From IMG/VR virus record IMGVR_UViG_3300037067_012088, positions 96,001 through 160,000 of that record: a stretch of DNA of 64,000 nucleotides. One strand, given 5' to 3'. The notes below the pieces were generated by a model. That model worked only from the letters and a program-made list of their open reading frames with translations. It was not told the origin of the DNA and did no database searches. Shown here piece after piece: positions 8,002 through 10,649 of the stretch (its first letter is position 1; each line of letters opens with the position of its first letter). Made by a program: the position numbers and the translations under genes. This DNA is from a virus. Lineage: Duplodnaviria; Caudoviricetes.

Positions 8002-8352
8002 TCACTCAAGCCCCCAGCACTCGCGGGAGGCAGGGGACAAGCCCCGGTGATAGGAGGGACGGGCACGCTCCCGGGCTTCGTCGTCTTCAATGGCGGCGAG
8101 CGCGGCCTTGCTCAGGGTGGCGGGGACAATATCGAATTGGGACAGGGGCACCCAATGCGGCGCACAGGGGGAGCGCTCAAGCCGGACGAACACCTCGCCG
8201 GCTTTCGGCCCGCTCAGGACGGTATAGAGCCCGTCATAGGTGCAATCGTTGCCGTTGCTAAGGGAGTGAAGGGTGCGGCCCTTGAGAGAGCCGAATTTGT
8301 GTTCGTCGTGCTGAACAGCGGGAGCGTATGAGTAATAGGTGGGAGAATTCAT
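8002..8352 (-). CDS. hypothetical protein
   Basis: 116-aa ORF with upstream TAGATT -10 and palindrome. Confidence 0.75.
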   Translation of the reverse strand: MNSPTYYSYAPAVQHDEHKFGSLKGRTLHSLSNGNDCTYDGLYTVLSGPKAGEVFVRLERSPCAPHWVPLSQFDIVPATLSKAALAAIEDDEARERARPSYHRGLSPASRECWGLE

Positions 8353-8408
8353 GGGAAGAGTTGAGTTACTTTGAACACCGCCAATCTACAGCATGGCGCG
8401 AGTCTTGT

Positions 8409-8840
8409 CTGTAGGGTCGATCCCCTATTTTCGCTAGGGTGCTTCTCTCCCCTTCGCGCCGCTCCGGGGTGCGGCTCTGCCGCAGATTCTTAGGTAAACC
8501 CCTCTAGCTGCGGTGTATCAGTTACCTGTTAGACTTCTTTCCACTAGGCGCGCACTCCTTAACTGGGTTTATCCCGGTCCCTCGTGTAACCCTTACTGAG
8601 TCAGTAGACTAACAGCGCACCGTGAATCGGTTCACCATTCAACTCTCAGGCCACGAGATTAAACGGCATGTCTAGACAGGACTGAAACAGGTCAAACCGC
8701 GCACCGGGTTTAGGGTGTAACGTAGCTCTTTGAGGTAGTCCATTCGTGACTATCACCCATGAGACCGCAAGACAGGCTAAGGCCGCTTGCGGCTTTGTCG
8801 CGTCTGTTTCGCGGGCCAAACGGCAGTCAGTCCCCTACAG
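8409..8840 (-). ncRNA. candidate ~430-nt structured ncRNA
   Basis: ORF-free; promoter TTGCGT-16-TAACCT (~8846-8873); 5'/3' 8-bp closing helix plus many nested stems. Confidence 0.55.
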
Positions 8841-9034
8841 CTAAAAGGTTAGTATCCCGTAGGCAAGACGCAAGCTTAATCGGTGTAAAGAAATCGTAAA
8901 GGATTCGTAAACGTAAATGTAAAGACCGCCGTGGCCGGAACCATGGGTAAGGAGATAGCGGGAAACGAGTAGGCTTGCATAAGAGCCTAGTCCAAGGGCA
9001 CTTAGGTAAACGGCCTTTGCGCGCAATCGGGGCG

Positions 9035-9515
9035 CCTAGTCAGTCTTTACGTTTACATTCAGCTCTAGGGAAACGACCCTAGCAGATTTACGCGAGCTTG
9101 GCATCCATTCGCGCGGTTGAGAATAGGTCTCATTATCACTCGCGAACGCGCCAAAAACGGCGCCTTTTCCCAGCACTAACATATTGAGGGAGTATAGGCA
9201 AAGAGTCAACACCTTTCCTCTAGGGTCCATTACCTAGGCGCGCCTAGGGTGTTTTGCCTACCTGACACTAGGGGATCAAAGATGCCCGTTTCGCGCGAAT
9301 TTTGCGCACTTGGCACGATTCCTTTTCGCTTATACGGGCATATCTAGCAAGGGTCTAGGCCACCATAGCCGGCCGCCCAGCCTTTCGCGTAACACGTTGC
9401 ACGGTAACGGAATACCCGTTTGCGGGTTTTGCGGTCGCGGGCCACCTAGTCAATCTTGTCGTTTACAATCCAGCATAGGGGAAACACCCTAGAGGAAACT
9501 GGCAGAGCTGGCATG
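9035..9515 (+). repeat. ~70-bp imperfect direct repeat (9035-9105 and 9445-9515)
   Basis: cctagtcaRtctt..cgtttacaWtc..TAGGG-N6-CCCTAg..gagct(t)ggcat in both copies. Confidence 0.75.
9181..9209 (-). promoter_or_regulatory. sigma70-like promoter
   Basis: TTGACT-17-CAATAT just downstream of three tandem TAGGG sites. Confidence 0.6.
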
Positions 9516-9660
9516 AGGAGTGCGCGGCAAAGTGGAGCCAAAGTAGTTAGGTGCCTAATCATATTGGTGCGGGCAGGTGCGTAGGCGAGTGGTGAACTGT
9601 ATGAGTGGAGGTAGGACGGTAGTTAGGAGCCTAACTATTTAGTAGCGTCTCACTCATAGA

Positions 9661-9810
9661 CCACCCCTTTCCCCTCCTCCCTCACCCCTCTTTTTTACAC
9701 TCTCCCTTTATCTCTCTCCCTTGTATCCCCTTACGTTATCCTTACCCGGTTCTCTCTGTTCTCTCCTCCCTACTCCTTTCCCCTATCTGTTCTCCCTTTA
9801 CTCTGTTCTC
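9661..9810. repeat. 150-bp polypyrimidine/polypurine tract
   Basis: Plus strand almost entirely C/T. Confidence 0.85.
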
Positions 9811-9960
9811 TAGGTGTCTAGGTAACGGGCTGGCAGGCCAGCCGGCCACCTAAGCCCCTAATCCCCCTATTTAGGTCACTGATTAGGTTAGGCTATCTCA
9901 AACCCTAGCGCTGCCCTGTTTGGCGCGGTTTACCCTGTTACTTAGACCAAAGGAAACGAG

Positions 9961-10173
9961 CTAGCCGGCCTTCCGTATCTTGGCCGCGCATTTCGGGCAC
10001 TCCGGCACCGTCTCACTTGCTAGCGATTCATCTAGACAGAGAAAATCAACCCGGCACCCACAAAGGGTCTTGCCAGTCTCTAGGTTGACCGCGTGATCCT
10101 GAAAGGCCACCTTTCCGCGCGCTTCCATATACTCGGCGCCCTTGCCTCCCATGGGATAGGTTTTCCATTTCAT
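9961..10173 (-). CDS. small Cys/His Zn-binding protein
   Basis: H..TLCG..CPKC; leaderless promoter TTGACA-16-TAGGCT. Confidence 0.75.
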   Translation of the reverse strand: MKWKTYPMGGKGAEYMEARGKVAFQDHAVNLETGKTLCGCRVDFLCLDESLASETVPECPKCAAKIRKAG

Positions 10174-10212
10174 GCGCGAAAGCCTACCCTTTGCGCCGTG
10201 CCTGTCAAGCGT

Positions 10213-10593
10213 TTAGCTCCGATAAGACATGACGCAAGAGGCATCACAAAAGGCGCGTCCGCTGGGGACGTATTCGCCTACGCTCCGGCCGCACCATTTG
10301 CACTCACTGGGGCGGGCACGCTCACAAAGCTTGCGTTGGGTCCGGTCAAACGTGGCCGGGGTATCCTGTTTGACCACCAAACCGCCCCGGCGGTTAATCT
10401 CGTTTTGACAGTAGCCAGAAAAGGCGCGCAACACGTCATAGCCGTTTCCGCCATCCCATGCGCTCGTAAAGGTCTCCCGGTAATGCGTGCTAAGGGGTTG
10501 CGAGCGAACTACGCGCAAGACTTTAACCACTTGACCGGCCGAAATGACGCGGCCAGAGGCAAGACGATGAAAGGGGAGGATGTTGGGGAGCAT
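10213..10593 (-). CDS. protein with C-terminal Zn finger
   Basis: CKWCG..FCDASC; own promoter TTGACA-16-TAGGCT. Confidence 0.75.
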   Translation of the reverse strand: MLPNILPFHRLASGRVISAGQVVKVLRVVRSQPLSTHYRETFTSAWDGGNGYDVLRAFSGYCQNEINRRGGLVVKQDTPATFDRTQRKLCERARPSECKWCGRSVGEYVPSGRAFCDASCVMSYRS

Positions 10594-10649
10594 GGTAGGG
10601 AGGTTAGTTTGATTGAACAGTGCCAAGCCTAACCGGCTCGCAAGTCATG

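Follow-up and report, generated by a model that had tools for sequence, protein, structure and literature searches.

The non-coding RNA genes of uncultured large phages are, to our knowledge, almost unexplored. The OOP RNA of phage lambda is a 77-nt cis-antisense RNA that overlaps the 3' end of a coding gene, and morons and PeSL-type promoter/stem-loop cassettes carry protein genes. In Pseudomonas phage PAK_P3, sRNA1 and sRNA2 are ~100-nt, strongly expressed late intergenic RNAs of unknown function that were seen by RNA-seq (PMC4933390).

The element described here lies in the genome of an uncultured phage and resembles the PAK_P3 RNAs in that a short non-coding transcript would arise from intergenic DNA, an analogy based on the late-type promoter and on there being no ORF. 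It differs from them in that the RNA would be ~300 nt long, is predicted from sequence and has no sequence similarity to either RNA, and in that the cassette is optional and oriented against the early genes. As with lambda OOP, a short RNA with its own promoter and candidate terminator is predicted to lie opposite a fully complementary mRNA, but here the partner would be a leader without coding function, and the conservation of the core points to a sequence-specific role that goes beyond simple antisense pairing. The likeness to morons and PeSL-type cassettes is that of an insert predicted to be independently transcribed from its own promoter to a candidate terminator of its own, present or absent among close relatives and situated in a zone of repeated promoter and hairpin punctuation; unlike them, the cassette has no ORF. 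We regard the element as a candidate new small RNA (sRNA) family of an already known kind, outside the curated RNA families and with three known copies.

Genomic setting and homologues

The window, the whole 64,000-nt stretch of DNA that we analysed, comprises bases 96001–160000 of a 191,387-bp IMG/VR virus record estimated to be 92% complete. The record encodes a tape measure, a portal, a ribonucleotide reductase, a DnaE-like polymerase with <28% identity to that of any cultured phage and nine tRNA genes, which are clustered on the minus strand (L020:5937–9630; genome ~165.9–169.6 kb). The genome's largest ORF-free gap (window 8353–10092; 1,740 bp), in which repeated boxes and local duplications abound, lies among small early-type genes of the minus strand and contains the interval 8409–8840, which an initial annotation had described as a structured minus-strand RNA of ~430 nt. 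A 116-aa gene (8002–8352) with a minus-strand promoter at 8411–8383 neighbours the interval. Where the gap begins on its upstream side, a 179-aa plus-strand ORF (10093–10632) overlaps a 137-aa minus-strand ORF (10213–10626), both with codon scores near zero, and gene prediction there is uncertain. The recurrent boxes have at their centre a stop-containing 4-nt palindrome that occurs 23 times in the 1.74-kb gap. Its density there is ~8-fold that of the genome as a whole (1.6 per kb), and outside the gap it is strongly avoided.

Informative relatives were reached through contigs with homologues of the neighbouring proteins. A close relative whose 116-aa gene is 92% identical (L026) has the element at the same locus. 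A second close relative (L027) has the same locus without the segment corresponding to window ~8827–8446, retaining a minus-strand promoter and a 13-nt start motif on one side and a palindromic box, a promoter and the gene on the other. In a distant phage (L005), whose DUF932 protein is 57% identical, the element lies in a 1.6-kb gene-free gap (L005:5591–7200) between unrelated flanking genes. That gap and the 1.7-kb gap of the window are loosely collinear; both have a ~100-nt purine-rich tract on the minus strand ~1.1 kb upstream of the core and a short common motif between tract and core.

Given the otherwise intact locus in L027, window ~8446–8827 (~380 bp) is an apparently self-contained, optional non-coding cassette of the early region. 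It is single-copy in the phage genome. INPHARED phages contained no similar DNA, IMG/VR single-protein scans with both flanking genes produced no match, and exact and degenerate pattern scans of IMG/VR, JGI metagenomes and GTDB genomes returned only seed-only chance matches (L007/L010, L008, L009 and L022–L025), which we rejected after checking by blastn, nhmmer and tblastn. The element was absent from the DUF932-neighbour contigs L002–L004, L006 and L011–L015 and likewise from L028, a covariance model of the core detected no further copy in 302 kb of relatives' sequence, and HMMER searches of 1.8 billion representatives yielded no additional homologues of the 116-aa neighbour. Because only three copies were found, the family appears to be tiny.

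Among the rejected matches, L007:3282–3305 (on the same contig as L010) is a 24-nt exact match to the core's invariant block. It exceeds the 19–20-nt search seeds, lies inside a 756-aa ORF on an unrelated 4.4-kb viral contig with no flanking similarity and is probably due to chance. The idea that the core is a pseudogene was discarded, as the 756-aa protein gene has only the invariant block in common with it.

The conserved core and its folding

Conservation within the cassette is concentrated in an island of ~125 nt (8508–8633). Between the window and L026, identity reaches 98% over 8550–8609 and 90% over the whole island, compared to 38% over 8634–8827 and 56% over 8353–8507 in the flanks; the adjacent protein gene, at 89.5%, is less conserved than the core. 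The L005 core can be aligned over 163 nt at 67% identity and differs by indels of 1, 2, 1 and 4 nt; a 23-mer without any difference (8559–8581) forms the invariant block of the island. Searches with tblastx revealed no conserved frame and matched only the invariant block, in all frames. As initially reported, no ORF of at least 60 aa overlaps 8409–8840; the longest are 57 aa (minus strand) and 46 aa (plus strand), both with negative codon log-odds. The indels that are not multiples of three, the lack of a conserved reading frame and the negative codon log-odds together disfavour coding. A micro-ORF on the minus strand behind a Shine–Dalgarno-like motif was also considered and dismissed, its conserved bases falling in different frames in the window and L005. 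The element is mosaic and optional, does not code for protein and is under strong purifying selection.

Next to the core, the cassette has a variable body (8634–8827) that is 60–65% alignable with L005, with deletions of 9, 12 and 35 nt in L005, and absent from L027. The window's body is closer to that of L005 than to that of L026, which indicates that the L026 body has been replaced. Two other identities for the cassette were tried and set aside. The 8-nt terminal arms proposed initially (8833–8840 and 8409–8416) are present, but they are not MITE terminal inverted repeats or indel boundaries, since L027 keeps both while lacking the interior; and resemblance to a CRISPR repeat extends over only ~10 nt, with no repeat hairpin and no Rfam match.

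The component pairings of the ~430-nt structured RNA in the initial annotation are real as sequence: besides the terminal arms, the 7-nt arms 8804–8810/8684–8690 and 8609–8615/8526–8532 and all of the small hairpins are there. The annotation had named folding energy no better than shuffles, together with the absence of a discrete transcript, as what would count against it, and for folding energy this is what dinucleotide shuffling revealed for the 432-nt stretch (MFE –154.4 versus –144.5 ± 6.0 kcal/mol; z = –1.65), with 6 of 100 shuffles folding as well and the opposite strand scoring alike (z = –1.64). Its caution that the terminal helix might be coincidental was justified, because the 3' arm (8409–8416) overlaps both a recurrent palindromic box (8412–8427) and the –35 element of the 116-aa gene's promoter. 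Most of the listed helices fall in the body (8634–8827), which is poorly conserved in L026 and partly deleted in L005. Among the listed helices, 8609–8615/8526–8532 alone lies in conserved sequence and is largely kept in the relatives; the others lie in sequence that is non-conserved or deleted.

Rfam 15 had no match in the window at gathering score and none at E ≤ 5 in 8200–10200; for the L005 copy there was none within the element at E ≤ 10, and two chance-level matches (E > 5) fell outside it. We saw no indication of a ribozyme or intron, there being no Rfam match at E ≤ 5, no exon context and no similarity to a catalytic core. Interval 8409–8840 is not a 430-nt ribozyme-like RNA, and the headline claim of a large structured RNA is not supported. 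What survives of the non-coding RNA interpretation is a conserved, Rfam-less non-coding element inside the interval, as opposed to a 432-nt minus-strand molecule.

Single sequences of the conserved part fold ordinarily: z was –0.23 (minus) and –0.9 (plus) for window 8513–8840, –0.13 and –0.38 for the conserved part of L005, and between +0.6 and –1.3 for the 122–131-nt cores of the three copies on both strands. The RNAalifold consensus contains a candidate long irregular stem-loop (8526–8615), closed by 8526–8532/8609–8615 and with an apex hairpin at ~8563–8577. It is followed by a 4-bp hairpin (8619–8631) whose stem occurs in every one of the three copies, the loops measuring 5, 7 and 5 nt; in L005 two of the four pairs are changed on both sides. 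The raw MAFFT alignment of the three copies gave a column-shuffle z of –2.0. Moving one 2-nt gap, a choice that favours structure, gave 29 pairs, six of them compensated on both sides, with z = –3.2 (minus) and –3.5 (plus). In a model-fitted alignment only two pairs were compensated and 55 of 500 shuffles did as well. Covariation among homologues, which had been proposed as a check, varies with where the gaps are placed and falls short of significance in the model-fitted alignment: up to six compensated pairs are seen under one alignment of three sequences and two under the other. A structured core is plausible from these three sequences, and the evidence is suggestive, not significant.

Transcription signals on the two strands

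The plus strand carries a late-type promoter (8486–8523), matching the class consensus in full and composed of a 7-nt box (8493–8499), an 11-nt spacer and an 8-nt box (8511–8518), the last of which had been picked out initially. Against an expectation of 5.8, the genome contains the 8-nt box 26 times; most of these copies are accompanied by the upstream box and immediately precede an ORF. The 8-nt box usually lies 11–12 nt downstream of the 7-nt box and from a few to ~50 nt upstream of the start of an ORF, and the ORFs behind this promoter class include the portal, the tape measure and other large ORFs. A position weight matrix (PWM) trained on 15 other sites, with the site at 8486–8523 excluded, gave that site 27.6 bits on the plus strand, the 14th-highest score in the genome, where just 21 positions in 383 kb (both strands) attain 15 bits. 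The homologous site in L026 scored 23.4 bits despite its diverged spacer, and L005 retains the downstream box only and has no score under this phage's PWM. The conserved island ends exactly at the 8-nt box, and in all three copies the closing helix of the core starts 6–7 nt past that box, the spacing at which a transcript should be expected to start.

As a class, these bipartite promoters (7-nt box, 11–12-nt spacer, 8-nt box) are specific to this phage and number ~21–25; almost every one directly precedes an ORF, and the structural module has the greatest concentration of them (for example, window 351, 8511 and 59678; genome 31867, 63748, 70474 and 77183). Several start codons follow the box by only 6–15 nt, so that the mRNAs concerned would have almost no leader. 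A second top-scoring copy (40 bits) has no ORF behind it (genome 31842–32930; L017:1843–2931) and sits outside the window in the genome's second-largest ORF-free gap (1,280 bp). That segment is another candidate for a late non-coding transcript, dissimilar to the present element.

A terminator-like hairpin with a short U-tract follows on the plus strand (8765–8798; 7-bp arms 8765–8771/8786–8792, U-tract 8793–8798), 240–280 nt further downstream. L005 has the same arms with a long U-tract directly behind them, the canonical shape of an intrinsic terminator; the window has a short U-tract, and its MFE structure prefers an extended hairpin. In L026 the equivalent position is occupied by an unrelated weak hairpin with five U, and a better hairpin lies ~40 nt further on. 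Seen from the minus strand, the U-tract becomes a run of A and falls on the wrong side of the hairpin. Promoter, start spacing and hairpin with U-tract together point to a plus-strand unit of ~280–330 nt. The best-supported promoter and predicted terminator both lie on this strand, which the initial annotation had raised only in passing as a possible source of a late antisense transcript.

On the minus strand there is a weak sigma-70-like early promoter (8873–8846). The hexamers reported initially are present (8873–8868 and 8851–8846, 16-nt spacer), but they match the consensus at only 7 of 12 positions and fall below the scanner threshold, and the –10 is not conserved in L026 or L005. A 13-nt start motif (8840–8828, minus strand), unique in the genome, is kept beside the L005 and L026 copies of the element and also in L027. 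There, at the same distance from this motif, the promoter has a –35 that fits the consensus, a 17-nt spacer and a good –10. At the other end, outside the cassette, the palindromic 5+6+5 box (8412–8427) and the minus-strand promoter of the 116-aa gene (8411–8383) form a segment (8383–8427) that L026 and L027 both keep; the promoter hexamers of L026 are the better ones. The box has eight perfect copies in the genome versus 0.18 expected, all at window 8.4–20.8 kb in the early region. In L027:470–600 the strong sigma-70-like promoter and the palindromic box are separated by only ~85 nt, an 'empty' early cassette at the position that the element occupies in the window. When wobble pairs of the consensus structure are counted, the minus strand has a slight advantage, with 84 canonical cells of 87 versus 76 on the plus strand. 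Transcription may well occur on both strands, early on the minus strand and late on the plus strand.

Candidate roles of the cassette

Our preferred reading, to which we give roughly an even chance, is that the cassette carries the gene for a late small RNA, transcribed along the plus strand and antisense to an early leader, with a 5' stem-loop domain under strong sequence constraint. A small late non-coding RNA is the most likely product because the core lies directly behind a late-gene promoter on the strand opposite to the early genes. This promoter, of the class that serves structural and presumably late genes, would fire along the plus strand, against the early genes. The transcript would start near 8524–8526, at the foot of the conserved stem-loop, continue through the variable body and stop at or just after the hairpin and U-tract at 8765–8798, giving an RNA of ~280–330 nt (0.28–0.33 kb). 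A riboregulatory role is probable, as such an RNA would be fully complementary to the leader from the early promoter at 8873–8846; its minimum role would be to shut off early transcription at this junction late in infection, by cis-antisense pairing or transcription collision. That the core sequence is so strongly constrained suggests a further partner in trans, protein or RNA; no complementary target of at least 13 nt and no paralogue were found elsewhere in the phage genome.

In favour of a late plus-strand RNA we count direct observations (the conservation island, the absence of the cassette from L027, the promoter match and the lack of coding signal) together with the fixed spacing, the terminator-like hairpin and the consensus fold (z between –2 and –3.5; as many as six compensated pairs), for which both figures vary with the alignment. 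Counted against it are the ordinary folding of single sequences, the dependence of covariation on the placing of gaps, the wobble pairs favouring the minus strand, the short U-tract in the window, the failure of the L005 site to score with the PWM, the small number of copies (three) and the lack of a complementary target of at least 13 nt elsewhere in the genome. The wobble pairs bear on a different reading, that a discrete early minus-strand RNA, or a long leader of the 116-aa gene, runs from 8840 to the box at 8412–8427 and has the core for a 3' domain. The strong L027 promoter, which precedes the same 13-nt motif, occupies a position homologous to that of the window promoter, the layout of promoter, body and box recurs in neighbouring early cassettes, and both the G–U pairs of the consensus structure (canonical on the minus strand only) and a small hairpin at 8596–8608 (surviving in L005 on the minus strand only) fit this direction. 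We nonetheless consider it unlikely: the window promoter is a 7/12 match whose –10 is not conserved in L026 or L005, the 5' two-thirds of the molecule are not conserved in L026, its terminal helix uses a recurrent box and its folding is unexceptional (z = –1.65), and the conservation of the plus-strand promoter boxes flush with the core would be left unexplained.

Ordinary folding energies would also fit an account at the DNA level, in which the locus is punctuation only, a mosaic junction that serves as a transcription boundary or recombination hot spot, with the core as a protein-binding or recombination site. Its position in the largest ORF-free gap, among repeated boxes and local duplications, agrees with this, and the presence/absence polymorphism and replaced L026 body show that recombination is frequent here. 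We consider it equally unlikely, in view of the island itself, which at 125 nt is long for a binding site, exceeds the adjacent protein gene in conservation, is single-copy unlike the recurrent boxes and begins at the predicted +1 of a strong promoter, and of several substitutions between the window and L005 that preserve base pairing. A large catalytic or ornate RNA (a ribozyme, a self-splicing intron or a GOLLD/ROOL-like RNA) is extremely improbable. Length, the absence of ORFs and many short complementary segments are all that speak for it, whereas no Rfam family (including ribozymes, introns, GOLLD, ROOL, C4 and CRISPR repeats) matches the window copy at gathering score or at E ≤ 5, folding does not exceed that of shuffles, only ~125 nt are conserved and no host gene is interrupted.

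A bolder extension of the late plus-strand RNA is that the cassette is a horizontally mobile 'RNA moron', a self-contained late RNA gene that moves between unrelated large phages and whose invariant stem-loop would act in trans, for example as a decoy or sponge. We think this quite improbable. If true, the RNA would titrate a protein or RNA of the host or of a rival phage, and its function would be accessory and possibly anti-defence, not housekeeping.

As it stands, the element is a modest candidate sRNA, not a ribozyme, and the analysis also provides a promoter consensus for the structural genes of this phage. With its bounded 125-nt core, defined promoter class and natural deletion in L027, the locus is a clean test case for the exchange of RNA-only cassettes, and for the question of whether phages exchange such cassettes as they do protein morons.
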